A stretch of 64,000 nt of DNA from an uncultured virus (IMG/VR IMGVR_UViG_3300012933_000168). Lineage: Duplodnaviria > Heunggongvirae > Uroviricota > Caudoviricetes. The notes below the pieces were generated by a model. The model ran no database searches and was not told the origin of the DNA. It worked only from the letters and a program-made list of their open reading frames with translations. Of this stretch, positions 1-64,000 are shown piece by piece. Made by a program: the position numbers and the translations under genes. The DNA is taken from IMG/VR virus record IMGVR_UViG_3300012933_000168, one strand, 5' to 3'. The stretch's first letter is position 1, and the number at the start of each line of letters is the position of its first letter.

Positions 1-197
1 AGTGTTGCCCGTGCTGACGTAGGTGTAACGTATTGATAGTTACCTTTGCCATACTCCATCACCACGCACCATGAGTTGCGTTCCTCTCGGGCCATGGCCT
101 CGCCACAGCACTTACATACTCGGTAGCCGAGCGCCCAGCGGTCAATGTGAACGTCATCACCACACTCAACACAATCTCTCCACTCTGTATCTAACAT
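1..197 (-). CDS. C4 zinc-finger protein (DksA/TraR-like), runs off window start
   Basis: Manual translation MLDTEWRDCVECGDDVHIDRWALGYRVCKCCGEAMAREERNSW... with CxxC..CxxC; GAGGGG RBS; ATG lies inside the 13-bp palindrome at 191-203. Confidence 0.7.
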   Translation of the reverse strand, partial: MLDTEWRDCVECGDDVHIDRWALGYRVCKCCGEAMAREERNSWCVVMEYGKGNYQYVTPTSARAT

Positions 198-207
198 TGT
201 TAGCCCC

Positions 208-488: not shown

Positions 489-574
489 TGTTACGTTTCC
501 TTCGTTTGTTGTGCCTAACATTGTTAGGTCGGGTGGTTTGTCTGAGGCACTTTGTTTTTTGTTCCTCAGCCTAT

Positions 575-603
575 ATTGTATCACAATGTGATAGACAAGT
601 CAA
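575..603 (-). promoter_or_regulatory. Sigma70-type early promoter
   Basis: Minus strand TTGACT-17 nt-TACAAT. Confidence 0.75.
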
Positions 604-974: not shown

Positions 975-993
975 TCGCACCATAACATTGTTA

Positions 994-1130
994 GGTCGCT
1001 ACTCCCCCTCGGAGAACTGGTATTAAATTGGGGGGACGAAAGCTCTTGCCCCTGCTTCGGTATGCCCAAGGCTTCGCCGACTCGGTCGCTACCCCCTATC
1101 GGAGAACTGGTATTGAATCAGGGAGACAAA
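994..1130. repeat. Imperfect ~47-bp direct repeat, 90-bp period
   Basis: GGTCGCTAC..TCGGAGAACTGGTATT..GG.GAC at 994-1040 and 1084-1130; identical 16-bp core at 1009 and 1099. Confidence 0.85.
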
Positions 1131-1178
1131 CGTAACAAAGCCCTAACATTGTTAGGGCTCGCAGAGAAAACGCAGACG

Positions 1179-1204: not shown

Positions 1205-1309
1205 CCCGTGTGGGTTGTGGTCTTACCAGCCTAAAAGCCGAGCCCTTTGTTTATCGTGGTGCATTTTAATCCTAACATTGTTAGGGCGGGGCTTGCGCCC
1301 CGCCTTGGT

Positions 1310-1825
1310 TTACTTACCCTCGTTAATCAGGCTCAGGTCAACGCCCATCGCTTTGAGCGCGGCCTTGATACCATCGAGCGCACCGCTTTGCTTTGTGCTC
1401 AGCGAATCGGCTTTGTGGCACGCCTTATAGAGCGCGGTCAATTCCTCCACTAAGCGCAGGTCTAATGGGCGTGCTTTGCTACCCGCTTCCGCTTCGGGTT
1501 CGGCTTCGGCCACTACACCGAACAAAGCACGGGCAATAGCGTCTTGCTTTGCGTACTGTTTAACCATCTTCCATGCGTTCGATGGGTTCGAATAGCCGAT
1601 GGCTTTCAGTCCCGCATAGTAGGCTTTCTTTTCGCCCTCGATGGCTTCGGGCAGTTTGCCGCCGTTGCCCTCCAATTCAAACCATGCACATTCGCTAATG
1701 TCATTCATTCCCGCCGCATAGTTACGGCGCGCGCCGTAGTTGCTTGTCTCCGCTTCGATAGCCTTAACACGCAAGGCGGCGATTATTGAATGTGTCGTGG
1801 GCGTGGTGATGTTGATTGCAGTCAT
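1310..1825 (-). CDS. Hypothetical early protein, 171 aa, isolated transcription unit
   Basis: AGGAG RBS, natural helical composition, hairpin at 1285-1303 and terminator downstream. Confidence 0.85.
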   Translation of the reverse strand: MTAINITTPTTHSIIAALRVKAIEAETSNYGARRNYAAGMNDISECAWFELEGNGGKLPEAIEGEKKAYYAGLKAIGYSNPSNAWKMVKQYAKQDAIARALFGVVAEAEPEAEAGSKARPLDLRLVEELTALYKACHKADSLSTKQSGALDGIKAALKAMGVDLSLINEGK

Positions 1826-2159
1826 AAGAACTCCTAAGTGTCAGGGCTTGATTGCCCGTATGAATAGAGAACAATTCCCTTTTCATGCCGCTATATTACC
1901 AAATTGTGATGCAAAAAGCCAAGTATTTAAGGGAAAATTTCAGGGGGGCAACGGCCTAACATTGTTAGGTTATAGCGAACCCACTACACCGCCACCACCC
2001 CAAATGGGCAAAGGGGAGGTATGGGTCCCATACACTGGGTTCCGCTCAAACGATATTCATTTTTTAAAAACGGGGGGTACCCCCTATTATTTTGTATTAC
2101 AAAGTTACCCCACCCCCTTCATATAGGAAACCCCCCGGCATAGGAGTCCCAGAAAAATT

Positions 2160-16029: not shown

Positions 16030-16802
16030 NNNNNNNNNNNNNNNNNNNNNNNNNNNNNNNNNNNNNNNNNNNNNNNNNNNNNNNNNNNNNNNNNNNNNNN
16101 NNNNNNNNNNNNNNNNNNNNNNNNNNNNNNNNNNNNNNNNNNNNNNNNNNNNNNNNNNNNNNNNNNNNNNNNNNNNNNNNNNNNNNNNNNNNNNNNNNNN
16201 NNNNNNNNNNNNNNNNNNNNNNNNNNNNNNNNNNNNNNNNNNNNNNNNNNNNNNNNNNNNNNNNNNNNNNNNNNNNNNNNNNNNNNNNNNNNNNNNNNNN
16301 NNNNNNNNNNNNNNNNNNNNNNNNNNNNNNNNNNNNNNNNNNNNNNNNNNNNNNNNNNNNNNNNNNNNNNNNNNNNNNNNNNNNNNNNNNNNNNNNNNNN
16401 NNNNNNNNNNNNNNNNNNNNNNNNNNNNNNNNNNNNNNNNNNNNNNNNNNNNNNNNNNNNNNNNNNNNNNNNNNNNNNNNNNNNNNNNNNNNNNNNNNNN
16501 NNNNNNNNNNNNNNNNNNNNNNNNNNNNNNNNNNNNNNNNNNNNNNNNNNNNNNNNNNNNNNNNNNNNNNNNNNNNNNNNNNNNNNNNNNNNNNNNNNNN
16601 NNNNNNNNNNNNNNNNNNNNNNNNNNNNNNNNNNNNNNNNNNNNNNNNNNNNNNNNNNNNNNNNNNNNNNNNNNNNNNNNNNNNNNNNNNNNNNNNNNNN
16701 NNNNNNNNNNNNNNNNNNNNNNNNNNNNNNNNNNNNNNNNNNNNNNNNNNNNNNNNNNNNNNNNNNNNNNNNNNNNNNNNNNNNNNNNNNNNNNNNNNNN
16801 NN
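16030..16802. other. Assembly gap (N run)
   Basis: 773 Ns. Confidence 1.
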
Positions 16803-37945: not shown

Positions 37946-37981
37946 AACAGAGGAGTCAGCAACTAACATTGTTAGTCTACG

Positions 37982-41054: not shown

Positions 41055-41294
41055 TTACTTTTTTGCCTTGAGGCGCGGGAGCAAACGCTCAATTTGTTCG
41101 CAGTGGTGTCGGGTCGGGAGCGTAGTGCCCCAGAACCAGTTGTAGATGGTCGCTCGACTCACATCAAGACGACCAGCTATCTCACTCACAGGAATGTTGA
41201 GTTGGATGCAAGTGCGGCCAAGGACGACGCCCCATGACTTGTCATCAGCCGCTTTGTTGGCTTCGACCAGTTGGTAGCTGTATCCGTAGCTCAT
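41055..41294 (-). CDS. Cro/XRE-like helix-turn-helix protein
   Basis: VSEIAGRLDVSRATIYNWFWG. Confidence 0.8.
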   Translation of the reverse strand: MSYGYSYQLVEANKAADDKSWGVVLGRTCIQLNIPVSEIAGRLDVSRATIYNWFWGTTLPTRHHCEQIERLLPRLKAKK

Positions 41295-45770: not shown

Positions 45771-47553
45771 AGTTCAAGGGCAACTCCATGCCCCACTTGG
45801 GTCGGATGCGCATACACATCTCGACGTATTCCACAGCAGTCTTAACTTCCTCGGTCTTGACGATACAAGCCACCGCGTCATGCACAGTCATCACAACGTG
45901 GTACTTCTTGGCAATCATCAGCATTTGGTCGCCGATGATGATACGCGCTAGGGCTTGGCATACGTTTTCGATTACCTTCCCGCCGTAGATGCGGTTGGGG
46001 ATAACGGCTCGGCCCTTCTTGGTGTCATACACAATCTCGGTTTTGCCTGTTTCCTCGTCGGCCTTCTGACGCAGGTTGGGGTAGCGGATATACAAGCCGT
46101 TGGGCAAGCGGATGCCGTCCTTACCTTCGATCTTCAAGATGCCGTCACGTCCTAACATTGTTAGCTGGCCCCTAAGAATCGCCTCCAGCGCCGTACCGGC
46201 TTCTTTCCACAGCTTCGTGATTCGTGGGTATGTAGCTCGATATGTGTCAATGATTCGTTTCGCCTCATCGAGCTCGACGATGACGCCGAAGTTCTTAAGC
46301 TGAGCTTGAAATTTCGCCGCGCCCATGCCGTACCCCGCCCCAAGAATCGTTGTCTTTCCAACAAAGCGCTCATCTTTCGATATATCCGCAACGTCCTTGC
46401 CGTAGATAGCCGATGCCATGATTTTGTAAACGTCCTCGCCACGGTCAAATGCCTCCACTAAGTCGTCTTGCCCAGCTAGCCATGCTAGCGTACGGGCTTC
46501 AATTTGTGATGAGTCAGAGTCGATCATCAGATACCCCGCAGGTGCGAGGATAGATTTCTTCAGCGCTGACCCCCTCGGCAAGTTCTGAAGATTAAGTTTG
46601 TCATCGCCCCCCCATCGCCCAGTGTGGGCGGCGTAATAACGGAGGGGAACTGGCATGGCACCTCGCTGAGCAATCCCAATAAAACGTTCAGTTCTCGACT
46701 CCTCAATCGTAGATTTCGTACCCAGTCGGGCGGCGACGAGTGCTTGTACGGACGGATTCGGATGTTCGAGAAGTTCTTTGAACGCCTCGTCTGTCTTTGC
46801 GAAGGCATAGGTTTCCTTTCCAGTAGCAGGGCTCTTCTTCATCGGTGGCGCGACACCGAGTACCGTGAGTAGCTCGGCGAACTTGGGGTTGCTCATCAGC
46901 GTGTCTTTGTCGAAGTTCTCCAGCAGCTCAGCTTTGCGTTGCTGTTCTTTCAGCAGATGGACGCGCAACATACTCTCATCCAGTTGCAAGACTGGCTCGG
47001 TAAACATACGGATGGTCAGGTCGATCAAGCGCAACTCAGTCGGCGGGAAGTCTTGACTCATGCAGTTGAACAAGTCCCATGTCAGGCGCACGTCGTTCTT
47101 ACAGTACTCACCATACTGGGCTAGCTGTTCCTTGGGGAAGTCAGTGCGGCGCAATCCCTTCGCATCGTTGACCTCAGTGCCCTTCTCGCCGATGCCGTAG
47201 AACTCCGCCAGAACCTTCAGGCTACCGCCTACGTTCGTACCGTGAAGAGCGCGGCCCATAGATAGCGTGTCAAGCCAACCCTTCGGCTTGATTTGGAAAT
47301 GCTCGGTCAGGATGAACCCGTCGAACATAGCGTTGTGCGCCAGCGCAAGGGAGTTCTCCCAATCGAATTGCTTGAGGAACGCATACGTACCGATGGAGTC
47401 ACCTGTGTACCACTCAGGTTCACCGTCATTGACCTGCACAGCCACACCCACAACTTCAAAGCGTGGGTCGCGTACGTATTCCTCAGTAGTCTGTTTAGAG
47501 AAGCCAAGGTCGGCCCCATACGCCGACTCAAAGTCAATAGTAATAATATCCAT
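45733..47553 (-). CDS. polA: Family A DNA polymerase with 3'-5' exonuclease
   Basis: TIDFES, AHNAMFD, HTGRW, NLQNLP, DSSQIEAR, KTTILGAGYG, VHD. Confidence 0.95.
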   Translation of the reverse strand: MDIITIDFESAYGADLGFSKQTTEEYVRDPRFEVVGVAVQVNDGEPEWYTGDSIGTYAFLKQFDWENSLALAHNAMFDGFILTEHFQIKPKGWLDTLSMGRALHGTNVGGSLKVLAEFYGIGEKGTEVNDAKGLRRTDFPKEQLAQYGEYCKNDVRLTWDLFNCMSQDFPPTELRLIDLTIRMFTEPVLQLDESMLRVHLLKEQQRKAELLENFDKDTLMSNPKFAELLTVLGVAPPMKKSPATGKETYAFAKTDEAFKELLEHPNPSVQALVAARLGTKSTIEESRTERFIGIAQRGAMPVPLRYYAAHTGRWGGDDKLNLQNLPRGSALKKSILAPAGYLMIDSDSSQIEARTLAWLAGQDDLVEAFDRGEDVYKIMASAIYGKDVADISKDERFVGKTTILGAGYGMGAAKFQAQLKNFGVIVELDEAKRIIDTYRATYPRITKLWKEAGTALEAILRGQLTMLGRDGILKIEGKDGIRLPNGLYIRYPNLRQKADEETGKTEIVYDTKKGRAVIPNRIYGGKVIENVCQALARIIIGDQMLMIAKKYHVVMTVHDAVACIVKTEEVKTAVEYVEMCMRIRPKWGMELPLNCESGYGESYGDC

Positions 47554-48041
47554 CAGTACGATTCCCCTCTAACAATTAAACTAATCACTCTTTGGCTTAC
47601 ATCGAATTTGTTCGCCAGTTGTTTTTGTGTGAGCCCATGCACCTCGTAAGCCCTGCGGATTTCCGCAGCTTGCTTGTTGGTCAGCTTTGCATTTGCATGA
47701 TTCTCACCCTTGGGTTGCGCCCTACGCTTCTTAGCATAGGCGTCTAGTTGGTTGTCTGCGTACGAGCCAATGAAGAAATGCGTTGGGTTACAGCACTTGC
47801 GGTTGTCACACTTGTGCAGTACGTGGGCTTTCTCCTTCGAGTTAGTCGGCCTCGCTGGGTCTGCTACCAAATCGCTAAGCCAAGCGGCAACCCTGTGTGC
47901 CGTGTACGTCTTACCGTGCCACGCCACCGTACCGTAACCTGTGTTGTTACACGCACCCTGCCACTCCCAACACCCGTTGCGCTGACGCCTATCCCCTTGG
48001 ACTCGCGCCCAAAAAGATTCTGCTGTTTGCTTTTTTGCCAC
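47553..48041 (-). CDS. HNH homing endonuclease
   Basis: CWEWQG..GYG, AHRVA, VLHKCDNRKCCNP.H, C-terminal HTH. Confidence 0.9.
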   Translation of the reverse strand: MAKKQTAESFWARVQGDRRQRNGCWEWQGACNNTGYGTVAWHGKTYTAHRVAAWLSDLVADPARPTNSKEKAHVLHKCDNRKCCNPTHFFIGSYADNQLDAYAKKRRAQPKGENHANAKLTNKQAAEIRRAYEVHGLTQKQLANKFDVSQRVISLIVRGESY

Positions 48042-49035: not shown

Positions 49036-49327
49036 TTCCAAACTCCTTGATGTACGCTTCAAAATTCTCTAGGTTCGATTCCCGAACCACCCACGCATCG
49101 CCTTCGGCTTTCTCAATATCTCGGATGTTCTTCTCTTGCAACGCTGTCGGTATACCTTTACCGGCTTTCGCTTCAACTGCTAAGAACTTGCCCTTGATAC
49201 AACACAAGAAGTCAGGGACTCCACTGTTGCCGTACCCCGTGCCCATCGGCATCGCGTAGTACACGCCGTGTTCTTTCAGAATCTTCTTTATCTTCTCTTT
49301 GACTTTCGCTTCGGGTGTTGATGCCAT
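49028..49327 (-). CDS. VRR-NUC nuclease (resolvase-like)
   Basis: PEAKVK..GVPDFL..AVEAKAG..TALQ. Confidence 0.88.
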   Translation of the reverse strand: MASTPEAKVKEKIKKILKEHGVYYAMPMGTGYGNSGVPDFLCCIKGKFLAVEAKAGKGIPTALQEKNIRDIEKAEGDAWVVRESNLENFEAYIKEFGNE

Positions 49328-49387
49328 GATACTCTCTAATTAGACTTTGTCAAGAGGGCTAACATTGTTAGCCCCCCGTGTTTTTAC

Positions 49388-50008
49388 TTAAACTTGGCCG
49401 CGCTCTTTCAAGATAGCCATACCTGCATACACGATAGCGCCGAACACTTCTTGCTCAAATGCTTCGCCTGTGCGGGTACTCGCGGCCTCTTCCAATTTCT
49501 TGGTGGCTTGGCCTGTTGCAAAACCACGACCGTGCATCTTGGTGTAGTGCGCCCAAGGTTGTTCCAAGAATGGAGTACGCGCACCGCCATGACGTTCGCC
49601 TTTACCGTGCATAGCTTGCTTGATCGCATCCATGAATACGTGGTACAGCGGGTGGTCTTCAACGCGGTCGGCTTGCGGTTCTTCCATTGTGATGCGCTCG
49701 ACGTTCTCCATCAGCATCTTGCCTGTCACGGGGTGCATACGTTGACGGCCTTTGGTCAGTTCGTAGATTCGCTCGGCCTCTTCCTTGAACGGCATCGCGG
49801 GTTCTTTGCTCGTGGTCGTAGTTACGTGCCTCCACTTCAACTGCTTCGGCACTTTCACGCTCAGCTTCTTGTCGTCGTGGCGGATAGCGTATACGTAAGC
49901 GGGGGTAATACCACACGCCTTAGCTACATCGACGGCGGTTGCCTTTGGGTGCGCCGCTTGGTATGCGCGGACTTTAGATGCTTTGCTCGGTTTAGTCGCT
50001 GTTGTCAT
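49388..50008 (-). CDS. Two-domain protein (N-terminal HTH-like; C-terminal GKGERHG domain)
   Basis: GGAG RBS; AVDVAKACGITPAYVY. Confidence 0.7.
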   Translation of the reverse strand: MTTATKPSKASKVRAYQAAHPKATAVDVAKACGITPAYVYAIRHDDKKLSVKVPKQLKWRHVTTTTSKEPAMPFKEEAERIYELTKGRQRMHPVTGKMLMENVERITMEEPQADRVEDHPLYHVFMDAIKQAMHGKGERHGGARTPFLEQPWAHYTKMHGRGFATGQATKKLEEAASTRTGEAFEQEVFGAIVYAGMAILKERGQV

Positions 50009-50009
50009 T

Positions 50010-50207
50010 TCAATATTCTCCAGTTTGGGTTTGTACATAGTTGGTTAGAACTTCTCGGATTTTGGCTTGCTTGTTGGGAAAGGTCTCGAAATACTCGATC
50101 ACCTCTCGCGGCAAACGCAAGCTCGTATTAACAAAGGTCGGCTTCTTACCGGGACCGCGCCCTTGTCGTTTTTTCTCGGGTTTCAGATATTCAATTCCAG
50201 TTGTCAT
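50010..50207 (-). CDS. BrnA-antitoxin-like ribbon-helix-helix protein
   Basis: GRGPGKKP..TSLRLPREVIEYF..QAKIREVL. Confidence 0.65.
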   Translation of the reverse strand: MTTGIEYLKPEKKRQGRGPGKKPTFVNTSLRLPREVIEYFETFPNKQAKIREVLTNYVQTQTGEY

Positions 50208-53637: not shown

Positions 53638-53805
53638 ACCACTAGCTTCACCAATATGCCGATGACTAACAATGTTAGGGCGTAGAGAATAATGTCGTTG
53701 ATAGTCGGCGCGGGGCGCTTGTGCGCAATCCACCATTCACCTAGGCGGTCTTGGGGGAACGCCTCTTCTAGTGTGCGTGGGTAGCATCGGGTTGTAGGCC
53801 AACCT

Positions 53806-54639
53806 TCAAATTTGGGGTTTGGTTTCTTCATCTTCATTCTCCAAAATCAACACAAAACTTTCATCATTAACTCGGCAACCTATACCAGTTACCATCGCTT
53901 CCTTCTCCACCAGCTTGAGCATACCTAGCTTGCCGCGTAGCTCGACGGGTAAAGTCACATCATCATACAGTTGTACATTGTCACGTATCTTAACAATATA
54001 TTTGCTGTCTGCCAATACCACCAATGCAGTTCTGTTGTTCTGAAACGCCTTAATAGTTTCGGCAATCGTCACCATGTCGGCTCGGACATCCTCTAACATT
54101 GTTAGGTGTTCCAGCATAGCTGTATTGTGGTTGTGCTTCAGCTCCAAGATGTACTGACTCATGTTGGCTTTTGCCCACTTATACAAGTCGTTCTCAATCG
54201 GACGCTCATGCTCACGTTGCTTGCTTTGGTTGCGATAGCTTTGATTCTCCAGTACACCCTCGGCTACCACTAACGCTTTGTTGACACGCTCGGATAGATT
54301 CATCGGGCCGAATGTCTTCTTCACTCGCAGGTACGCTTTGTCTACCTTGTCGGTGTGGTATGCGTTCTTACGTGTGTTGTTAGCACCAATGCGGTCGTTA
54401 CGCACAAACAGCTTCTGACTACTGCCGTACCACTCAGAGCCGATATAGCCCAGCTCCTCACTACCATCTACCACACGGAATGTACGGAACCCCACCACCT
54501 CGACAGTCCATAGTGGATGCTTGGTCGCCACTTCCCACGCCAGCATCTTGGCCTCGCCATGTAGCTGGTTCTCGTCAATCGGTTTCTCATTCTTACCCAT
54601 ACGCACGTTGGGCAACTTCATCAATTCAATAGCCATCAT
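53806..54639 (-). CDS. Hypothetical protein, 277 aa
   Basis: GAGGA RBS; LP.ELRGKLGMLKL C-terminus. Confidence 0.8.
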   Translation of the reverse strand: MMAIELMKLPNVRMGKNEKPIDENQLHGEAKMLAWEVATKHPLWTVEVVGFRTFRVVDGSEELGYIGSEWYGSSQKLFVRNDRIGANNTRKNAYHTDKVDKAYLRVKKTFGPMNLSERVNKALVVAEGVLENQSYRNQSKQREHERPIENDLYKWAKANMSQYILELKHNHNTAMLEHLTMLEDVRADMVTIAETIKAFQNNRTALVVLADSKYIVKIRDNVQLYDDVTLPVELRGKLGMLKLVEKEAMVTGIGCRVNDESFVLILENEDEETKPQI

Positions 54640-55885: not shown

Positions 55886-56346
55886 TTCATTTCTCCTTCA
55901 GGTTTCATATCTAACAACTTCAACTGTCGTGCAATGTCGCACACTTCCTCTTTCACCCACTCGAACGTGCGGTAGGTATCTCTCATGTGATGGCTAATGT
56001 CTGTCTCGGTGTACTCCATCAACGTAGCCACCAGCTTCGGGCTAAAGTCCCCTGCGTGTGAGCAGTCGAACCCAACCACCCACTCGTCTGTCTCCTTGTC
56101 TTTCTCCGAGTACGTCAGCCCACCATGCGCTTCAATACCCCTATCGTTGAGCCAGTCGTAGTTGAACCCGTACGCCTTGTGCCCCCTTGGTATAGCCACG
56201 TACCCGTTCAGGTGTCCGAGCGTTCCATGTCGCCACACTGTGCACTTGTACCCAGTCAGGTCATGTACCCACTCCTCGTTGTCAGGCTCGTGTTCCCACG
56301 GGCGGTCGCTTATCAGCAACTTCATCTTCTGTTCTGCATCTAACAT
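55882..56346 (-). CDS. Conserved phage protein (HGGLTY..GFDC.H)
   Basis: GHLNGYV, HGGLTY, GFDCSHAGD; ATG inside the palindrome. Confidence 0.8.
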   Translation of the reverse strand: MLDAEQKMKLLISDRPWEHEPDNEEWVHDLTGYKCTVWRHGTLGHLNGYVAIPRGHKAYGFNYDWLNDRGIEAHGGLTYSEKDKETDEWVVGFDCSHAGDFSPKLVATLMEYTETDISHHMRDTYRTFEWVKEEVCDIARQLKLLDMKPEGEMK

Positions 56347-56348
56347 TG

Positions 56349-57306
56349 TTAGCCTCCTTCATGTTTCGCGTTACTCAATAGCATCTTCACCATTCCGTGT
56401 GCTACTTCTTCACCTTCGTAGATACCCATAGGTTGCTTCTCTCCTCTCAATCCAATGGCGTACTTGTGCGAGTCGGTGATGAAGTCGCGTTGCCACTGCA
56501 CCCAAAAGCCAATCTGACCCAATGCCATGTTTGCGGATACCCACTTCATCTCGTGCTCATGCTCGTCTCTACTACTTATAGCCATCACTCCTCCTTCTTC
56601 AGTAGCTTCATGTAGTTCTTCATTTCTTTCTCGTTCAACCCCCACGCCACACGCATCCCATCCTTGCCGTAGATAGTCCACTTCCCATACTTGCGCTTGG
56701 AGTAGTAGTCGGGGTTGTACTTGTACCATTGCTCTTGGAACACGTTGGCCACCGTACCCCGCATACTCCGCGTCAATGCCTCGGCGTACTGCTTGCCAAT
56801 CCTCTCCAGCATTTCATCTTCTAGCGTACTCATATCAATCCTCGGGCTTTCCCGCCAGCTTGTACATGGCGTAGGTGTCTCTGCTAATCAGCTTCGCGTT
56901 CATTTGCTCCTCCAGCATAAAGATGTGGTGTGTCGCCCCTGTCGCTCCGTTGTACTTGCATCGGTACTTCTCCGCCTTCTCAAGTATCTTCATCAACGCC
57001 ATCGCATCCTCGACTGGCAACACCATGTCCCCGTAGGGCATCGTCACAATCATCGGCATATCAATCCTTCCATAATTCAAACAACTTCAACGTACCCTTC
57101 AGTCCATCGAACGTCAGGTTCCTGTGCACTTCATCCGTGCCGTCAAGCCTTACCCATCCACCCTTCGCGGGTTTCAATCGCCCTATGAAGTGAAAGCGCA
57201 GGTTGTAACGCCACGGCCTCCACCACACTCGGCTGACTGACCACGCATATAACTGAGATGGATGGTCGGGCGGCACCATGTACATATCCCCGCACTTAAT
57301 CTTCAT
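56349..57306 (-). CDS. Four small early genes (56349-56585, 56585-56833, 56835-57080, 57061-57306)
   Basis: Coupled ORFs with RBSs. Confidence 0.65.
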
Positions 57307-57308
57307 GT

Positions 57309-58523
57309 TTAGACTTCGAGGTAGATTGTTTTACCGTTGTCGGACACTGCGCTTGTGTTGCCACCACTGATGACCCACATAGTCGGCGCTGTCCACTCGC
57401 TACCCCAGTTCGGTACGTAGCCGTCAGTCAGCACAATCACACACTCGGGCACGATGTTCTCGTCTTTCAGGTACTGAGATACACAGCTTGGGTCTGTACC
57501 ACCACCGCCTCGTGGCTTGGTCGAGCTAACAATGTTAGATACATCACCACCCTCGTACTTCTCATGCCCTGCCACATGGCCGTCCCAGTAAATCAAGTCC
57601 ACCACCTCGGGGCTGACTTCCTCGGCGATACCCTGTACCTCGGATAAGAACTCGGCAAGCTCAGGCCCACCGATAGAACCCGATGTGTCGATAGCCACAA
57701 CCAAGTGACCAACCTTCTCGCCAATCATGCTGGGCATATACATACCTGTGCTGAGGAATCGGCGGTTCACACGACGCCATGAGCTTGTGTCTTTGTTAGA
57801 ACACGTAGCCTTAACGAAGTCGCGCAACACTTCACGCCAATCAATCTTGGGTGCAAGTAAGTCTTCCAGTTCACGGTCGAGCATCCCACCGCCTTTGCCA
57901 GCGTTCTTCTGATGTGCAATCAAGCCTTGACGAATCGCTTGGTCAATCTCACGCGCCAACTCTTTCTTCTCGTCCTCGGTCAGGTTCTCAGCGCCTTCCC
58001 AATCATGTTCATCGAAGCCGTCACCACCGCCACCGTTGGGGTCGTTCTTCTTCTCCTCTTTGAGAATGTCGTAGACCTGCTTGGTGTTCATGCCACGGAA
58101 TCGTTCGTCAACCAAGCCCATGAAGTCACCCTTCTTAGCCTTGGGGTGTCCTGTGTCCTCGGCGTAGCGTGGCATAGCGATGACTGACTCGTTCGGGTCT
58201 AAGTCCTTGAGCATCAAGTTAATCACGTAGTCCATAGCTTGATTAGCCAACTGCGCGTCCTCGGTGTGCAACTTAGTCCACGTTGTCAGGTGGCGGTACA
58301 TCTTGTGCCCAGCCTCATGCGCAATCACAAATGCCAGTTCCCTGTCGCTCATCTTCTTAACGAACGCACGGCCATACATCTCGTCGCGTCCGTTGGTACA
58401 CGCTGTCGGAATGTCATCGCGTACATGGGTCTTGCCCACCATCATCACGCCTTGTAGTAGTGCGAACTTGGGGTTGCGCATTACTGTGATTTTTGCTTTC
58501 TGCAATTTACGTTCTTCTAACAT
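57309..58523 (-). CDS. DUF2201-type metallopeptidase / vWA protein
   Basis: TACTNG, HEAGH (HExxH), DYVIN, MIDAS DTSGS, GGGGTD, LTDGY. Confidence 0.88.
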   Translation of the reverse strand: MLEERKLQKAKITVMRNPKFALLQGVMMVGKTHVRDDIPTACTNGRDEMYGRAFVKKMSDRELAFVIAHEAGHKMYRHLTTWTKLHTEDAQLANQAMDYVINLMLKDLDPNESVIAMPRYAEDTGHPKAKKGDFMGLVDERFRGMNTKQVYDILKEEKKNDPNGGGGDGFDEHDWEGAENLTEDEKKELAREIDQAIRQGLIAHQKNAGKGGGMLDRELEDLLAPKIDWREVLRDFVKATCSNKDTSSWRRVNRRFLSTGMYMPSMIGEKVGHLVVAIDTSGSIGGPELAEFLSEVQGIAEEVSPEVVDLIYWDGHVAGHEKYEGGDVSNIVSSTKPRGGGGTDPSCVSQYLKDENIVPECVIVLTDGYVPNWGSEWTAPTMWVISGGNTSAVSDNGKTIYLEV

Positions 58524-58537
58524 TGTTAGCTCCTTGT

Positions 58538-59685
58538 TTAAAAATCTGAATTGATACTTCTAGCCACACTCAACCGATAGTCGGAATAGTCCGAACGGTT
58601 CTGCTCAATGTCATCGGTGTCCTCACCGATACGCACGAACTCGTAAGCCCAGCGCCTCTCGCTAGCTTCCTCTCCATCGGCTAACTCCAAGAAGTTAGAT
58701 GCGAACCTGTTGAACGCTTGCACATCGGGGTAGCTGTCGTACCACTTCCATCCATCGCCTTCAAACATATACCCCGCATACCTACCGTTGTCTATTGGAT
58801 GTAGGTCGCCCTTCAACTCGTCGGGAAAGTTCTCGTCCACGTACAGTTTCAGTACTGGCGCGTGTTCCTTCGGCGCATAGAACGCCGCCTTTATGTCACT
58901 GCGATAGCCCATCGTTTTCCTCCTCAATACTGTTTAACAAAATACACATAGCATCGGCCTTGTCCTTCGTCTCATACTTACCCATGCCGATGTTGTCGAA
59001 CTTGCGTCTGTCGCATACCTCCCACCCCTTGAGTTGCAGGTATCCTGTTACTGAGTCAGGCTCAGTTACCCATCGTGTGAAGTACCTGTTCAAGTTCCCA
59101 TGTCCGTCTGTGTACTCGTCTCTCATGGAATCCAACTCGACTTCTGCTTGTATGCCCTTGCCAATACTTCAGCCTCGTTAATCAACATGAACAACGTAGC
59201 CTCCATCTGTGCAGGGTCGGATGTTTCCAGCAGTACCTCGCGCTTCTTTTTCGGTAGGTCGGTCTGCGTGTGTTGCGCTGTCGGTGTCTCTTGCTCCCAC
59301 TTGACCAACACGCATCGGTACTCGGGGTGCAATGCGCTGTACAACATACGGCGCTCAATGTTTAGTTGATAGCCCCACATCATGCGGTTCAAGTACTTGA
59401 ACATATCGTTGCACTTCTCCCATTCGAGCGGCCAGTCCATGTGCTTGTTCTTGTGGTTGTTCATCTGTGCATATAACATTGTTAGTCTCTCCACATCGTT
59501 AGCTTCTTGTACTCTTTCACCTGTCGGCGTACCTGTATGTGAATAGCCACAACCTCCGCCTCGTTGCCGAGTTGTTTTTGTAGGGCATCCACAACGTGTT
59601 TCCACTCCCCTGCTTGAGTGTGGCTATCCATAATCAACGTCGCCGCATCACGCACGAGTTGGTCGGTGTCAATCGTCACTAACAT
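58538..59685 (-). CDS. Four small early genes (58538-58912, 58896-59126, 59123-59479, 59482-59685)
   Basis: Coupled ORFs; starts 59479 and 59685 lie in palindromes; 58538-58912 has a KWY..Y..RIGE..DDIE motif. Confidence 0.7.
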
Positions 59686-59723
59686 TGTTAGTCTCCTAGG
59701 CGGGGTTTCCCCCGCCGTTCTCG

Positions 59724-60794
59724 TTACAGCAAGTCTTGGTTCTTAGCGACCCAGTCGGCGAACGCCTTAGCGCCGAACGCGATGGATTGTTTCGATGGTG
59801 TCTTAGCAATGTTGATTGCGAACACGGCTTGCCACTCTGCGTCGAAGCGTTCCAAGTACTCCATGAATGGGGCGATGTTGGTCTTGTCGATACGAGCGAT
59901 TGCACCGAAGATAACGATGGCACAAGCGCCAGGACTTGTCGGTACTTTCGTATGCTTAGGGTCTTTGATGGTGTCCTCCCATGATGGAAGTTGGTCAGAG
60001 AACTCGATGTACGCTTGCATATCACGAGCCGCCGCTTCACCAATCGCACCACTGAGCGCCGCGATAACAGAGTCAGAGTCATTCTGCTTACGGGTACTAA
60101 CAATGTTAGATGCCGTTGCCAGTGAACGAGGAGACACGAACGCAACCTGTGGCTTCTTGGGGTTGAAGATGTACGGGTTGTCGCCTTGTCCTGCGTCGGT
60201 ATAGCTAGCCATTGCGTGAGGGAATCGGTTAACCCACGCCAACACCTCAGCCGCGATGCCGTTGTTCATGCCCCACTCAATCCATTCCTCAGATGTTGGC
60301 TTGGCAATAGTCACGGGCACGATACGGTTCAAGCTGTGCGCCTTCATGTTGTCGCCCACACCATCGGTCGATAAGTTACCAGTCAGGAAACAGATTGTGT
60401 CCTTGGGCAATGGGATGTCACCGAGTCGTGGGTTTGCCTTCTCAAGCATGGGGTGCAACATATTCTTAACTGGGTCAGCGCCTTTGCTGAACTCGTCAAG
60501 CATGATGACCATTGGCTTGCCTGTATGAATACCGAAACGTGCGTTGGGGTAGTAGCGGGTCGTCTTAGTCTCGTGGTCAATCACGGGCATTGCAATGTCG
60601 CCCAAGTCCATGTTCGGTACGTCGATGTACGCATGGTCGTAGCCTAGTGGTGCGGCGATTGCTTCTAGCAGAGAAGACTTACCAATTCCGGGCTCACCTC
60701 GTAGCATGAAGCGGGTACTTGGGTTGGTGCGAATCAGGTTCGCGGCTTGCTTCAATGTGATGGTCTTACCAAATTTAACTTCTGACATTTTCAT
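59724..60794 (-). CDS. MoxR-like AAA+ ATPase
   Basis: GEPGIGKS, MLDEF, TGN, LNR, SPRS; vWA gene nearby. Confidence 0.88.
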   Translation of the reverse strand: MKMSEVKFGKTITLKQAANLIRTNPSTRFMLRGEPGIGKSSLLEAIAAPLGYDHAYIDVPNMDLGDIAMPVIDHETKTTRYYPNARFGIHTGKPMVIMLDEFSKGADPVKNMLHPMLEKANPRLGDIPLPKDTICFLTGNLSTDGVGDNMKAHSLNRIVPVTIAKPTSEEWIEWGMNNGIAAEVLAWVNRFPHAMASYTDAGQGDNPYIFNPKKPQVAFVSPRSLATASNIVSTRKQNDSDSVIAALSGAIGEAAARDMQAYIEFSDQLPSWEDTIKDPKHTKVPTSPGACAIVIFGAIARIDKTNIAPFMEYLERFDAEWQAVFAINIAKTPSKQSIAFGAKAFADWVAKNQDLL

Positions 60795-60902
60795 TTCCTT
60801 CGTTGATTACTGCTAACGCAGTTGTTATCTCTATGCCTAACATTGTTAGGCGACTCGTTTAAGTTCACTTGCTGGTGGGCGATAGTTATTCGCCAAGCCT
60901 TT

Positions 60903-60931
60903 ATTGTATCACAAATACTTGACAATGTCAA
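60903..60931 (-). promoter_or_regulatory. Near-consensus sigma70 promoter with palindromic -35
   Basis: TTGACA-17 nt-TACAAT; CTTGACAATGTCAAG at 60918-60932; flanked by 13-mers at 60837 and 60966. Confidence 0.85.
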
Positions 60932-60943
60932 GACCTTTGCTCC

Positions 60944-61482
60944 TCAATTCCTACCTTTGCTCTCGCTAACATTGTTAGGTTGTTCGTACCTGTTGAACTC
61001 CTCAGCCCACCATGCGTGTTCTAAGAAGAATTGGTTCTTGTGTTTCGGATATACCCTGCGTAGGCTAGTCACAGCACTCCGCATCAAGTCCTCTACATTC
61101 AGCATCACTCGGCGGCAGTCTTGCAACTGCTCGGGTGTCGTGTCGGGGTGACGCATCAACTTGAGCACACAGCTATCAGCCTTGGCCTTGTACTGCATAG
61201 TCTCTCGCCATATCTGCTTACACCTAACCAACTTCTCAGTCGGCGTAGTTGTATCTCGTGGCATCCCTGTTGGTGTGTTGGTATCTAACATTGTTAGAGC
61301 CCATGCTTCTTCTTGAACCTGTCGAACTGCCCAAAGATTCCCTCTCGCTCCTCGGGGTGCATGAACAGTATCTTGAGCATCACGCCTAAGCTATTCGCCT
61401 TCTCCCTCTCACGGAAGTAGAAGATAGTCGCGCCCACCGCCCAGCCCAGCAGGAAACATTCCGCATCACTCAGTCCAAACAT
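60944..61482 (-). CDS. Two hypothetical genes (60944-61291, 61294-61482) joined by a palindrome
   Basis: TAA 61294 and ATG 61291 both lie inside the 13-mer. Confidence 0.7.
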
Positions 61483-61483
61483 A

Positions 61484-62500
61484 TCAATCCTCCTCAGTCA
61501 TTACGTAGTCGGCATACTTGTGCGTAGGTACTTTGCCCTCGGGCAACGCCACCTTCTTGAACACCTTGTCGCTGAACATCTTGAACAGAATCCTGTCCAA
61601 CACCTTCTCGAATTGGTCAACACCCAACGTCACCTGTGACTCCATGCTGTCGCGCCAATACAAGCTCTGTTCCTGAACAAACAGAATGTTGAACGCAATC
61701 CAATAGTTTTGGTGGCGTGCGTTGTCATCTTGGTCATTCCGTACTAGGTCGAAGAACTCAGCGGTTGCCTGTCGGTAGTTACTCCACGCCTCATCCTTGT
61801 CCTCGGGTCGGTAGTACTTGGGCTTCTCGGTTATCTTCCACTTGTTGCCCACATCGGGTCGGCATCCGCCATTTACATCCTGAGACTTGCCAAACACCTC
61901 AATCAATTCCCCATACGTTGTTTTGACCACAGAGAAACCCTCACGCCCCCAAACGCCTTGAATCTCCTCACCCTTGAGCTTGATGACTCCAGCCAAGTAG
62001 TCACGGAATTGGCTCACGGACTTCCTAACATTGTTAGAGTCCTTGCGGCTCACTCGGTAGTCGTAAAGCGTCTGCGTTTCTTTTGGCAACCATCCGCCGT
62101 TTGCCGTGCGAACTAATGCCAGTTCCCCCTTGGCGGGTAGCATCGCCTTCGCGTTCGTACCTGAGAAGCCCAAGACCACCTGACCCTTGACTCGGTACGC
62201 ACCCACGCCACTCAGCACTCGGCTAATGAATTGGCACGTCGATGCACTTGGCCAGTTGTCTATGTTGATGATGACCTCATCCTCCACCGTGAACTTAATC
62301 ACGGGCGTTTGGTACAGCACACACTCGATTGCGTTTGTCCATACGTTCTTACGGATAGAGTAGGTGTCCACGTCACGACGCTCACCCAGTGGTCGCTTGT
62401 CCTCAGCCCTGCCCTTGATTGGCTTGCTGTTGTCGAACTTCTTTACTGCCTCGGCGTAGTCGCGTACCTTCGGCACTCTCATTACTGTTGCGTATCCCAT
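61484..62500 (-). CDS. Hypothetical protein, 338 aa
   Basis: AAGGAG RBS; long ORF in operon. Confidence 0.85.
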   Translation of the reverse strand: MGYATVMRVPKVRDYAEAVKKFDNSKPIKGRAEDKRPLGERRDVDTYSIRKNVWTNAIECVLYQTPVIKFTVEDEVIINIDNWPSASTCQFISRVLSGVGAYRVKGQVVLGFSGTNAKAMLPAKGELALVRTANGGWLPKETQTLYDYRVSRKDSNNVRKSVSQFRDYLAGVIKLKGEEIQGVWGREGFSVVKTTYGELIEVFGKSQDVNGGCRPDVGNKWKITEKPKYYRPEDKDEAWSNYRQATAEFFDLVRNDQDDNARHQNYWIAFNILFVQEQSLYWRDSMESQVTLGVDQFEKVLDRILFKMFSDKVFKKVALPEGKVPTHKYADYVMTEED

Positions 62501-62504
62501 TTCA

Positions 62505-63975
62505 TTACTCCTTTAAAAGTTTCTCGTATTTCTCTACCCACTCAATCGCTTGCTCGTTCGTTGGTATGCCCTCGGCGACGTACTCCCACTTGTGCCCGTT
62601 GGCAAACCTCCGAGCTTGTGGCTCCCATTGGTACCTGCGCTTGACCATCAACTCTCCGTCATGCCACCTCACGATGCACCAGTCAGGCTCCCTCTCTAAC
62701 ATTGTTAGCCCTCCTTCATGGGAACATATCCCAAGCAGATGTGCGGTCGACTAACGTGTGGTCTGCTACCGCGTCGTAATCCACCTCGAAGCGCATCATG
62801 TAGTCATGCCGCGCCAGCTTCGCCATTGCAATCAGCCTCTCCTTGTCTGTGCCCTCGGCTACTATCTCGGCGGTGTCCTCGGTCTCGCCTCTGTCTTTGA
62901 GTTGGTTCCAACACCGAACCGTTGTCTTGCTGGCTAGCCGTTTCAGGTACACCCTCGCATCTCCATCGGAGAAACTCACCAGCACATAATTCACCTTCTT
63001 CATACGCTAGCCAGTGCAACCGTTGCCCTGTCTCGTAGTTGCATCATCAGCCCTTGCGGGTTGCGCCCTAGCTTCGCGGCCAGTTGGTACATGGCGTTGC
63101 GCTTGGCATTGTTCGGGTTGGTTGCTGTCGTGTACATCGTCAGGATTTCCCCTGCGTTGTTGACTGTCACCTTGAACTTGTACTTCTCTAACATTGTTAG
63201 GTCTCCTCTGTTAATGCTTTGAATCTCATAATCTCCATCGTGTCGTCGCTCTCGGCGATAACCTCGGCTTCGTATGCCCCACGATAGAACGCTTTCTTTT
63301 GGAACTCATTCCATCTCTGCCTGTCCAGCATGAAACAATTCCCGTCCACCTTCATGCGTATCAGCACCCAAAACTTAGGCTTCTCGTGGTTGTCCATGAT
63401 TACTCTCCCTTCGCCAGTTGCACGGCTTTCTTCGCCAGCTCGTAGTCGTCGGTCTCCATCATCACTTCGCGCTTATACAAGTCCGAGTCCTTGTGTGCTT
63501 GGTTTAGCTCCCACTGCCCTCTCGTGCGTATGAAGAACTCCACGTCCCCCACCGCACTTGTGCGTCGGTACACCACCCAATCCTTCACACCCTTGGCCCT
63601 CGTACAAAGCTCCGCAACTTCACCATCTGTATAGTGGCGTAGGTGTATCTGCGGCATAAGTCGGCGTAGTCGGCTTCGCTTGTGTCCTCGTTCATGGCTA
63701 TCTCGGTGAACTGCCTCGTCATGTCTGCGTACGCCGCCTCCATGTTGAGGTACTCGGTAATCTGCTCTGCGTTAAATTTCATCTTCGTTCTCCTTCGGTT
63801 CGTTCGCTAACTCTGTTAGGTTGATTGCATCTACTAGCGTATGCCCTCGACTAACAAACTCGCATTTGGTGTTGGGTGTCTCTTGCACGTAGTTGTCCCA
63901 TGTAATGTCTCGGATGTACTCCAGCAGTCGTCTTGCATACCCTGTTCGGTAAATCACGTACTCGGCTTCATCCAT
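62505..63975 (-). CDS. Array of small early genes (62505-62702, 62716-63003, 63000-63194, 63197-63397, 63400-63657, 63772-63975)
   Basis: RBSs and overlaps; shared C-terminal strand-helix motif in most. Confidence 0.7.
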
Positions 63976-64000
63976 CCTCTTGCTCCTTCATTAGTTTGAG

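Follow-up and report, generated by a model that had tools for sequence, protein, structure and literature searches.

Palindromic sites with the consensus CTAAC-N3-GTTAG form an array along the early arm of the uncultured virus DNA analyzed here, a stretch of 64,000 nucleotides referred to as the window. We lean towards reading this array as an operator system bound by the product of the first early gene, most likely for negative control of the early block. A homodimer of that protein (1310–1825) is quite likely the palindrome binder and, given binding, repression is the probable outcome.

Results

Form and placement of the palindromic array

The palindrome noted in the preliminary description is real, with 22 exact matches in the window against 0.07 expected (0/100 shuffles). 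The centre of the 13-mer is AAT or ATT in 21 of these 22 matches, the AGA variant occurring once, at 63807, and the centre is reversed in three window copies. Two further copies matching at 12 of 13 positions (982 and 59473; final base T) give 24 sites in total, of which eight cover gene starts, eight are intergenic and eight are gene-internal (46152, 53666, 54093, 57526, 60097, 60966, 62025 and 63807). As previously described, the motif contains the ATG of eight genes (197, 56346, 58523, 59479, 59685, 61291, 62702 and 63194), whose products begin with ML(D/E/V/Y). The upstream TAA also comes from the motif at all four junctions claimed (56349, 59482, 61294 and 63197), with the 59479 start belonging to a 12/13 copy. 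A GGAG/GAGG-type ribosome binding site precedes seven of the eight motif starts and is absent at 61291. The earlier suggestion of an operator placed over translation starts is supported as to the operator but not as to a special placement over starts, which account for only 8 of 24 sites in the window; in relatives, starts comprise 45/317 of the 13-bp, 123/501 of the 14-bp and 3/33 of the TGAC-type sites. The evidence supports a double-stranded DNA site spread along the whole early arm, with starts as a minority placement. The 13-mer, in either orientation, had no match in the main texts of the openly available papers searched, and the listings covering phage palindromes, phage operators and the present phage group held nothing relevant.

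The sites, promoters and associated genes are as follows (window coordinates, strand in parentheses).

1956–1968 (-): site in the interval separating the first gene from the divergent terminase genes, ~140 bases upstream of the former
1310–1825 (-): first early gene, encoding an all-helical 171-aa protein modelled as a homodimer and proposed to bind the palindrome
1272–1284 (-): intergenic site directly downstream of the first gene
1143–1155 (-): intergenic site
982–994 (-): intergenic site, 12/13 copy
575–603 (-): early promoter 1, strong sigma-70-type, TTGACT-17-TACAAT
515–527 (-): site, centre ~+48 of early promoter 1
191–203 (-): site giving start 197, which opens a conserved Cys-rich early gene
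63807–63819 (-): variant site, centre AGA, within gene 63975–63772
63188–63200 (-): site giving stop 63197 and start 63194
62696–62708 (-): site giving start 62702
62025–62037 (-): site within the 338-aa gene 62500–61484
61285–61297 (-): site giving stop 61294 and start 61291
60966–60978 (-): site in the 3' end of gene 61291–60944, ~-76 of early promoter 2
60903–60931 (-): early promoter 2, strong sigma-70-type, TTGACA-17-TACAAT, before the AAA-ATPase/VWA block
60837–60849 (-): site, centre ~+54 of early promoter 2
60097–60109 (+): site within the AAA ATPase gene (60794–59724), centre reversed
59679–59691 (-): site giving start 59685
59473–59485 (-): 12/13 copy giving stop 59482 and start 59479
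58517–58529 (-): site giving start 58523 (DUF2201 VWA-like gene)
57526–57538 (+): site within the VWA-like gene
56340–56352 (-): site giving stop 56349 and start 56346
54093–54105 (-): site within the 277-aa gene 54636–53806
53666–53678 (+): site in the 3' end of gene 53831–53634, centre reversed
49359–49371 (-): site ending 5 bases upstream of the middle promoter -35 box
49326–49353 (-): middle promoter, sigma-70-type, TTGACA-16-TATCAT, upstream of the nuclease and DNA polymerase genes
46152–46164 (-): site within the family A DNA polymerase gene
37963–37975 (-): last site, at the junction of the early/middle arm with the convergent late arm

Position relative to promoters

A site occupies the +28 to +80 interval of 37 of the 38 strong early promoters in 19 genomes, compared with 3.2 expected, where the interval bounds were chosen after inspection of the promoter data and the expectation assumes no intergenic preference. 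This fixed position, ~50 bases behind the early promoters, indicates control of transcription. Just 2 of the 38 promoters carry a site over -45 to +10, which does not fit a classical promoter-occluding repressor. The site near -150 of the first gene recurs in most relatives, and the site by the middle promoter lies at ~-46 in the window and at ~-85 in most relatives. None of 314 sites falls in the late arm. In 17 of 18 genomes the sites are spaced more evenly than chance would give (p ≤ 0.05 for 12 of them), and site density declines with distance from the first gene.

Symmetry and selection

Among 40 early sites with single substitutions, drawn from 12 genomes, changes occur mirror-wise and only at positions 1, 6, 7, 8 and 13, while positions 2–5 and 9–12 are unchanged. 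The central base on the sense strand is A in 177 cases and T in 132, so both orientations occur. Arm-to-arm covariation in the flanks, the mark of a hairpin or cruciform, was not found.

The AAA ATPase peptide SNIV is kept in 29/30 phages of the 'YW' clade, yet the 13-mer is present there in only 8/30, versus 18/20 in the 'NPS' clade; the site is lost synonymously in most relatives of the 14-bp class. The same comparison for the VWA site gives 17/21 in the 'NPS' and 1/28 in the 'YW' clade, and relatives of the TGAC type carry their version of it with an amino acid change from SNIVSST to SDICQTT. At the site in the 338-aa gene, relatives encode NNV or NIV where the site is of 13 bp and TNV where it is of 14 bp. 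The 285-aa gene contains a 14-bp site in 15/28 'YW' and 0/18 'NPS' phages. Judged from these sequence comparisons, the gene-internal sites are kept beyond coding need. The mirror-symmetric changes, the retention within genes and the promoter position together agree with a double-stranded DNA operator bound by a dimer.

The first early gene as candidate binder

The clade of the first-gene protein and the site class (13 or 14 bases) agree in 63 of the 67 relatives compared, the discordant four being L021, L214, G021 and G023. On the first-gene tree, site class undergoes 3 changes, compared with 11 on the TerL tree and 10 on the TerS tree; when only distal sites are counted, 4 changes are obtained for the first gene versus 10 for AAA and 7 for VWA. 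Independent pairs on TerL changed the same way in 5.8 cases and the opposite way in none (p ~ 0.03, optimistic, as are the other p values, because near-identical genomes were counted separately); with TerS, the p value of this test stayed above 0.05. Phages 95–98% identical in TerL differ in site class jointly with the first gene. When all open reading frames shared among 20 near-complete genomes were scanned, the first gene, with its 3 changes, only tied with two other early genes, and an adaptor gene required 2 changes over 18 genomes. At least four sites are present at all 85 loci that have the first gene, whereas 7 of the 11 loci that do not have it contain fewer than four; the remaining 4 still carry 4–7 sites. 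Where an unrelated first gene stands, the arrays have shrunk to relic sites that mainly lie within coding sequence or at gene starts. On these comparisons, related phages most likely swapped the first protein and rewrote their sites jointly.

The 171-aa protein is predicted to form a homodimer. Its dimer model scored 0.52 versus 0.00 for the best control, with at least 90% of contacts in agreement between runs and pLDDT of at least 78; of the structures used for calibration, 20 of 30 solved pairs attain the homodimer mark, as does 1 of 23 single chains. In the model, helix 81–98 lies largely outside the interface. The protein has no Foldseek match (0 at E ≤ 0.001), its best VIA-align hits (Z score up to 6.6) are generic helical bundles only, and PDB profile, Pfam and PHROGs searches returned neither a match nor a recognized DNA-binding fold. 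Its Atlas neighbours are unnamed viral clusters. The missing fold and family matches do not imply a new fold. Homology to the gene heading the early arm of Planktothrix phage Pag-Yong1 (hhalign 0.1%) or to the L058 type (4.3%) is unsupported.

Three other proteins were rejected as binders because they do not track site class: an 'RHH-like' protein (50013–50207; a label read from the sequence, to which Pfam assigned no family), identical in 13-bp and TGAC-type phages; an XRE-like protein (41058–41294), 96% identical across these two types; and a 216-aa protein (49388–50038).

Host and lysogeny

Querying GTDB with the AAA protein gave no match. The VWA alignment gave 29 loci, the 11 closest of which lie on 3–63 kb contigs in MAG or uncultured bins from many phyla; these 11 are taken as co-binned phage DNA rather than as host evidence. 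None of the long host contigs in GTDB was found to contain a close relative. The five complete relatives contain no match to a tyrosine integrase or a resolvase-type (serine) recombinase, in a search whose PF00589 control was detected in 14/14.

The integron attC reading

The preliminary description also likened the palindrome to a collapsed integron attC site, at which a recombinase would add, remove or shuffle ready-to-translate cassettes. The AAC and GTT triplets are inverted in both, and the left arm holds a TAA stop; cassettes habitually have their stop inside the inverse core of attC. The proposed match to RYYYAAC...GTTRRRY is confined to 3 of the 23 TAACA-N-TGTTA copies (515, 1956 and 60837) and fails in the rest, and the triplet itself is absent from TGAC-type relatives. 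As published, attC sites comprise an L box, an unpaired central spacer and extrahelical bases within 57–141 bp (PMC5027507), features that are absent from the 13-bp site with its 3-nt centre; the flanks show no extended pairing past the consensus. As stated earlier, the window holds no visible recombinase: none was found among 81 open reading frames by Pfam (52 also by PHROGs), with 773 N at 16030–16802 unreadable. IntI is likewise missing.

Breakpoints between related genomes fall at 14/26 motif starts and 43/89 plain starts (p = 0.66), and a second count gave 5/1234 motif anchors versus 59/2119 plain starts. The suggested search for junctions joining two copies did yield isolated cases in the contigs of relatives, but these do not amount to an enrichment of breakpoints. 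Five motif-to-motif recombinant junctions were found in relatives. Among the junctions listed, one contig of run X9 places the gene starting at copy 56340 next to the flank of copy 191. In one contig of run X3 the gene flanked by copies 60966 and 61285 is missing, and the junction there is displaced by a few bases from an exact one. The sequencing-run junctions represent the best 15 of 68 joints and the best 24 of 409 loose ends, from runs that contain relatives only (best share 0.32), all as contigs. A small number of motif-bounded rearrangements thus occur, so that the repeat can act as incidental microhomology. Homology is continuous through four gene-internal copies in 34/34 alignments, and selection retains copies inside conserved genes, where crossover would harm. 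The crossover reading is thus largely refuted, and we give it the smallest chance of all the explanations considered.

Comparison with known systems

The stoperators of Cluster A mycobacteriophages (L5 gp71, Bxb1 gp69 and TipsytheTRex) are 20–35 genome-wide copies of a 13-bp site that is asymmetric, oriented with transcription and inactive when reversed, and that is bound in temperate phages by a monomer with an N-terminal HTH (PMC6550527, PMC3029335, PMC9283540). The likenesses are several: some copies lie at promoters and many are intergenic or overlap gene ends (here 24 copies, and 37/38 promoters in the 19 genomes), the consensus varies among related phages along with the regulator (63/67 concordant here), and the regulators are alike in size (183 aa for Rep, 171 aa for the first protein). 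In contrast, the present sites are palindromic and occur in both orientations, a third of them are gene-internal with amino acid recoding, and the spacer length switches between versions (13, 14 and 15 bp). The first protein, moreover, has no detected HTH family match and models as a homodimer, and the five complete relatives gave no integrase match. The Rep of Cluster A phages also has a stoperator domain and, once bound, blocks transcription elongation and confers immunity to superinfection, in phages that carry integration or partitioning genes. By analogy, the array would work like stoperators but is separate, with palindromic sites and a protein that appears unrelated.

The matS sites of E. 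coli, bound by MatP, have the consensus GTGACRNYGTCAC and number 23 (PMC6907758). The two systems share a palindrome of 13 bp built from 5-bp arms around an RNY centre, ~23 copies in one domain, and binding by a dimer (modelled here). However, the arms are CTAAC rather than GTGAC, so that only the 5-3-5 layout is common, the spacing is 0.6 kb rather than 35 kb, and the present array is phage-borne with a fixed position behind promoters. Neither Pfam nor the fold search listed a MatP-family match.

Pag-Yong1 (OL906435), an isolated capsid relative, has 22 copies of GTTCA-N3-TGAAC in the 50 of its 65 kb covered, mostly between early genes, and shares the combination of a palindrome array with an AAA/VWA early block. 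It differs in the sequence of the motif, which lacks an ATG, in having 5 copies in the late arm, and in the gene heading the early arm, which cannot be aligned to the first-gene family. Its record does not describe the array as an operator. The first 50 kb of HTVC023P and of DSL-LC04 contain no such array.

Discussion

In the mechanism we propose, a homodimer of the first-expressed protein would bind the ~24 sites of the early arm. Some of these adjoin its own gene, one follows each strong early promoter of the host-sigma-70 type at ~50 bases, and the others are spread every 0.4–1 kb with falling density. As the protein accumulates, transcription of the early block would be blocked or attenuated, amounting to a self-timed shut-off, and a second incoming genome of matching site class would be silenced. 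The stop/start overlaps may be one cheap fit for a site in a packed genome.

The same protein and sites could serve a job other than repression, which we consider unlikely. The dimer might organize, protect or pull in the first-entering 15–20 kb in the manner of MatP/matS, or aid transcription through middle-promoter activation or antitermination. The even spacing and declining density would suit such a role, the -35 and -10 boxes are avoided, the site upstream of the middle promoter suits an activator, and no integrase was found that would require a lysogeny repressor. Against it, the fixed position behind the early promoters indicates transcription control, placement at gene junctions would also produce even spacing, and the late arm has no sites yet must also enter the cell. 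It is very unlikely that a host regulator binds the sites, with site class following host switches and the first gene merely travelling with host range. That account draws on the four discordant genomes, the ties in the shared-ORF scan, the first protein having no known DNA-binding fold and the GTDB queries naming no host, but it requires a series of host proteins for the 13-, 14- and 15-bp and the TAAC, TGAC and TAACC versions; nor does it sit well with the joint change of class and first gene between phages nearly identical in TerL, or with the relic arrays beside unrelated first genes.

A translational operator at the RNA level, in which a 5-bp hairpin, its loop and 3' arm containing the AUG, masks the start codon or is recognized on the mRNA by a binder, is highly improbable. 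The starts in the window are compatible with it, as are the use of AUG-bearing sites as starts at about twice background (45/178 and 123/324 versus 0.13) and the preference for the sense orientation. The 13-mer hairpin is weak, however (-1.1 kcal/mol), the core shows neither G-U-preserving nor compensatory changes, two thirds of the window sites are not starts, and many lie in the orientation without an AUG.

Extending the repression reading, we tentatively picture, as a possible but doubtful scenario, an apparently lytic and abundant freshwater group that has an immunity-like system without lysogeny. A dimer with a new fold, made first, would coat the first 15–20 kb and shut down its own and kin early genes; conflict among kin would drive horizontal swaps of this single gene, after which 15–25 sites per genome would be rewritten, including those in conserved genes and even the dimer spacing (13, 14 or 15 bp).

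The analysis puts forward a likely master regulator, together with its sites, for a large group of uncultured phages. The group comprises 368 clusters at 50% identity, and nearly all of its early genes lack annotation. Proteins and sites vary in step across these phages, both in sequence and in spacer length, which provides a natural set from which to learn how specificity shifts when 20 sites must follow, and mixed genomes caught mid-transition are available. The stoperator idea would be extended to palindromic sites, to a different protein and to phages in which no integrase was detected. Since Pag-Yong1 is an isolated phage and has an analogous array, the question is open to experiment.

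Genome organization

The window represents most or all of the genome of one uncultured tailed phage. The plus strand carries terminase, portal, capsid and tail genes from 2432 to 37922, and the minus strand encodes a primase, a helicase, a family A polymerase, an AAA ATPase, a DUF2201 VWA-like gene and many small genes. The capsid protein shares 65–67% identity with its counterparts in Pelagibacter phage HTVC023P and in Pag-Yong1/MinM2, the only basis for linking these phages. Relatives with terminal repeats have genomes of 60–66 kb, and the sequencing runs with early-arm relatives are freshwater in most cases. The early arm begins at the first gene (1825–1310), reaches base 1 and, judged by synteny, resumes at 64000 and runs down to ~38000. 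Two further features are:

47553–48041, minus strand, HNH homing-type endonuclease directly adjoining the 5′ end of the DNA polymerase gene
16030–16802, run of 773 N within the structural module

The small terminase gene is preceded by a G/C-run palindrome (2070–2090), and many related contigs (loci L102–L181) start 50–260 bases ahead of that gene; the region is a possible packaging start or genome end. By eye, a tRNA-like gene (Asn-type, plus strand, about 2205–2280) can be made out in the gap that separates the first gene from the terminase genes.

The palindrome and its placement

The 13-bp palindrome CTAAC-N3-GTTAG occurs in 22 exact copies in the window against 0.07 expected, and two 12/13 copies bring the total to 24 sites. 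We take it to be a real feature and lean towards an operator array rather than a cassette junction. The preliminary description saw it as a stop–start gene junction; the eight starts and four stops assigned to it were all correct on re-checking, but 8 of the 24 sites are gene-internal and another 8 are intergenic. No published mention of the 13-mer, nor any description of a comparable array in this phage group, was found in openly accessible main texts.

Placement was analyzed for 314 sites in 19 near-complete genomes (three of them 78–83% complete). No site was located farther than 28.5 kb beyond the first gene, and over the first 16 kb the number of sites per 2-kb bin drops from 81 to 7. Of 38 strong early promoters (TTGAC[AT]-17-TA[CT]A[AC]T), 37 have a site centred at +28 to +80, mostly +40 to +59, where local density predicts 3.2; the bounds were chosen post hoc, and the expectation ignores the intergenic preference of the sites. 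Only 2 of the 38 have a site over −45 to +10. Other sites recur near −85 of the middle promoter (−46 in the window) and ~150 bases ahead of the first gene. In 17 of 18 genomes the sites are spaced more evenly than random placement would give (p ≤ 0.05 in 12 of them), a pattern that placement at gene junctions could yield by itself.

The −35 box of early promoter 2 (60918–60932) is itself palindromic, CTTGAC-ATT-GTCAAG, with the 3-nt-centre layout of the motif, and several relatives have a similar palindrome there. A second repeat, TGTTACGTTT-like, is packed into non-coding DNA (490–1140) that follows the first gene; its AAACGTAAC form has seven window copies, and it could represent origin iterons or half-sites. 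Where the window has this repeat, the relatives L030 and L064 carry tandem arrays of 15–19-bp units, likewise in non-coding DNA that follows their first gene.

Site classes among relatives

Of 80 loci retrieved with the VWA protein, most carry an array, and its unit varies by genome: TAACA-N-TGTTA (13-bp), TAACA-NN-TGTTA (14-bp), TGACA-NN-TGTCA (TGAC) or TAACA-NNN-TGTTA (15-bp). The different classes occupy the same positions. Loci with TerL 95–98% identical to the window include 13-bp (L084, L107), TGAC (L005, L106), mixed (L105) and 14-bp (L102; 3 sites in a short stretch) arrays, and the array of L006 (AAA 98%) is mixed. By an automatic rule (an ORF of 40 codons plus an RBS word), start placement is the minority, with 45 of 317 distinct 13-bp, 123 of 501 14-bp and 3 of 33 TGAC-type sites; 24, 75 and 3 sites, respectively, supply both stop and start.

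More distant relatives (L065, L300, L302, L306) have other palindromes. L065 (1–10000) has two similar first genes of 200 aa and, at 5–6 early sites, a bipartite inverted repeat with arms around CTTAG-N6-CTAAG. The phage-like contigs L298, L300, L302, L306 and L307, binned in MAGs, have further palindrome arrays, namely TGTTTAAACA, TAACC-NN-GGTTA, GGTAC-NN-GTACC and ACCCT-N7-AGGGT, and the TAACC-NN-GGTTA array occurs with a distant member of the first-gene family. The first 50 kb of HTVC023P and of DSL-LC04 contain no array.

The first gene product as candidate binder

The first gene encodes a 171-aa protein predicted to be all-helical (AlphaFold2 pLDDT 81), with no match in family or fold searches and with 368 relatives among 50%-identity representatives. 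Its homodimer model scores 0.52 against 0.00 for the best control, and among solved structures 20 of 30 pairs, but also 1 of 23 single chains, pass the mark used. At least 90% of contacts recur between runs, with pLDDT of at least 78, and the conserved helix 81–98 lies mostly off the listed dimer interface. This protein is the likely binder of the palindrome.

The clades of this protein match the site classes: NPS the 13-bp, YW the 14-bp, RANID and L161 the TGAC, and L030/L137/L163 the 15-bp class. With mixed, TGAC and 15-bp rows left out, clade and class agree in 63 of 67 rows with at least 5 sites, the discordant ones being L021, L214, G021 and G023. On these rows the first-gene tree needs 3 changes of site class, the TerL tree 11, the TerS tree 10 and shuffles at least 13, and independent pairs fall 5.8 the same way and 0 opposite for TerL (median p 0.03) and 4.1 and 0.0 for TerS (p 0.125). 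Sites from the AAA gene onward alone give 4 changes against 10 (AAA) and 7 (VWA) over 47 rows. In 20 near-complete genomes the first gene ties at 3 changes with 277-aa and 285-aa early genes and an adaptor gene has 2 (18 genomes), so that this sample cannot single out the first gene.

All 85 TerS loci with the first gene, duplicates included, have at least 4 sites. Among the 11 loci lacking it, 7 have fewer than 4, and the other four keep 4–7, mostly at coding or start positions. A different 170-aa first gene stands in for the family in L058 (2706–4276, two paralogues), L059, L063 and L064, which keep 1–7 relic sites. L037 (1966–3793) has two first-gene paralogues in tandem and 21 sites in 11 kb. 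The family match in genome G016 (C1:45374–45841) has one in-frame TGA near the contig end, either a broken gene or an assembly error.

Two other proteins, which by appearance are better DNA-binding candidates, were rejected as binders on more direct grounds: an RHH-like protein (50013–50207) is letter-identical in the 13-bp genome G001 and the TGAC-type L003, and an XRE-like protein (41058–41294) is 96% identical in the TGAC-type G016.

Probable double-stranded dimer site, and alternative readings

The sequences suggest that the palindrome behaves as a double-stranded site for a dimer. The early arms of 12 13-bp-class genomes hold 127 exact sites and 40 with one change, confined to positions 1, 6, 7, 8 and 13, with none at 2–5 or 9–12; the changes come in mirror pairs (C1A 9, G13T 8; A6T 5, T8A 3). 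Flank complementarity shows no excess over within-genome shuffles, the sense-strand centre is A in 177 and T in 132 cases, and the bare 13-mer hairpin is worth −1.1 kcal/mol. An RNA operator is very improbable. Gene-internal sites are retained more than the encoded protein requires. Of 30 YW-clade phages, 29 have the AAA peptide SNIV but only 8 have the 13-mer, which is present in 18 of 20 NPS-clade phages. The VWA-gene site is found in 1 of 28 YW and 17 of 21 NPS phages, and is recoded in two TGAC-type phages (SNIVSST to SDICQTT); the 285-aa gene has a 14-bp site in 15 of 28 YW, 3 of 4 RANID (TGAC form) and 0 of 18 NPS phages. Fisher p values of 1e-4 to 1e-8 overstate the case because near-identical genomes were counted separately. 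Binding by a host factor seems improbable.

A crossover site for gene cassettes, the other proposal of the preliminary description, is the least probable reading. According to PMC5027507, attC sites require R and L boxes, extrahelical bases and 57–141 bp; only 3 of 23 copies fit the R-box pattern, and TGAC-type relatives lack the AAC/GTT triplet. Tyrosine and resolvase-type recombinases were each found in 0 of 5 complete relatives (controls 14/14 and 12/14). Comparing the window with 10 close relatives, homology ends within 30 bases of 14 of 26 motif starts against 43 of 89 plain starts (p = 0.66). It is uninterrupted through four gene-internal copies (34/34 cases), and breaks in 3 of 6 at a fifth, 30 bases from the next start. 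An all-against-all search placed recombinant junctions at 5 of 1234 distinct motif anchors and 59 of 2119 plain starts (p = 0.40 for start-type anchors alone, estimated denominator ~250). In favour of crossover, among the 15 of 68 joints and 24 of 409 loose ends listed, a contig from run X9 passes from copy 56340 into the flank sequence of copy 191, and a contig from run X3 is missing the gene that separates copies 60966 and 61285, its junction lying a few bases away from an exact crossover. The repeat therefore sometimes serves as microhomology, no more often than ordinary gene starts. The cassette model fails on attC features, on recombinases in the five complete relatives and on breakpoints.

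Among known systems, the array is stoperator-like in working. As described in PMC6550527 and PMC3029335, Cluster A phages have 20–30 sites, some at promoters and most intergenic or overlapping gene ends, whose consensus follows the repressor. It is not a member of that system: stoperators lack symmetry, depend on orientation and bind a monomeric protein with an HTH (PMC9283540), whereas the phage sites here are palindromic and the first protein is modelled as a homodimer. The matS sites share the 5-3-5 layout and confinement to one domain but differ in sequence, spacing and protein (PMC6907758). A structural or positive role for the same protein–site pair is possible, though rather unlikely.

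Proposed mechanism

With modest confidence, we favour an operator system in which first-protein dimers and palindromes throttle early transcription. On entry, host sigma-70 polymerase would transcribe the first gene; its dimer would build up and occupy sites adjacent to its own gene, at +50 of the two early promoters and throughout the early block, where bound dimers would act as serial roadblocks. Resident first protein would likewise shut down any incoming genome that shares its site class, which would explain why close kin exchange the first gene and rewrite their sites. Judging by the mixed genomes, each first protein may tolerate a neighbouring class, offering a stepwise path between classes. 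The isolate Pag-Yong1 (L182, OL906435; 50 kb fetched) carries 22 copies of GTTCA-N3-TGAAC at 1828–43471, by its annotation 15 intergenic, 5 in genes and 2 overlapping gene ends; most lie between a stop codon and the next RBS, and its record does not annotate the repeat. As a cultured phage, Pag-Yong1 may provide a test system for such arrays.
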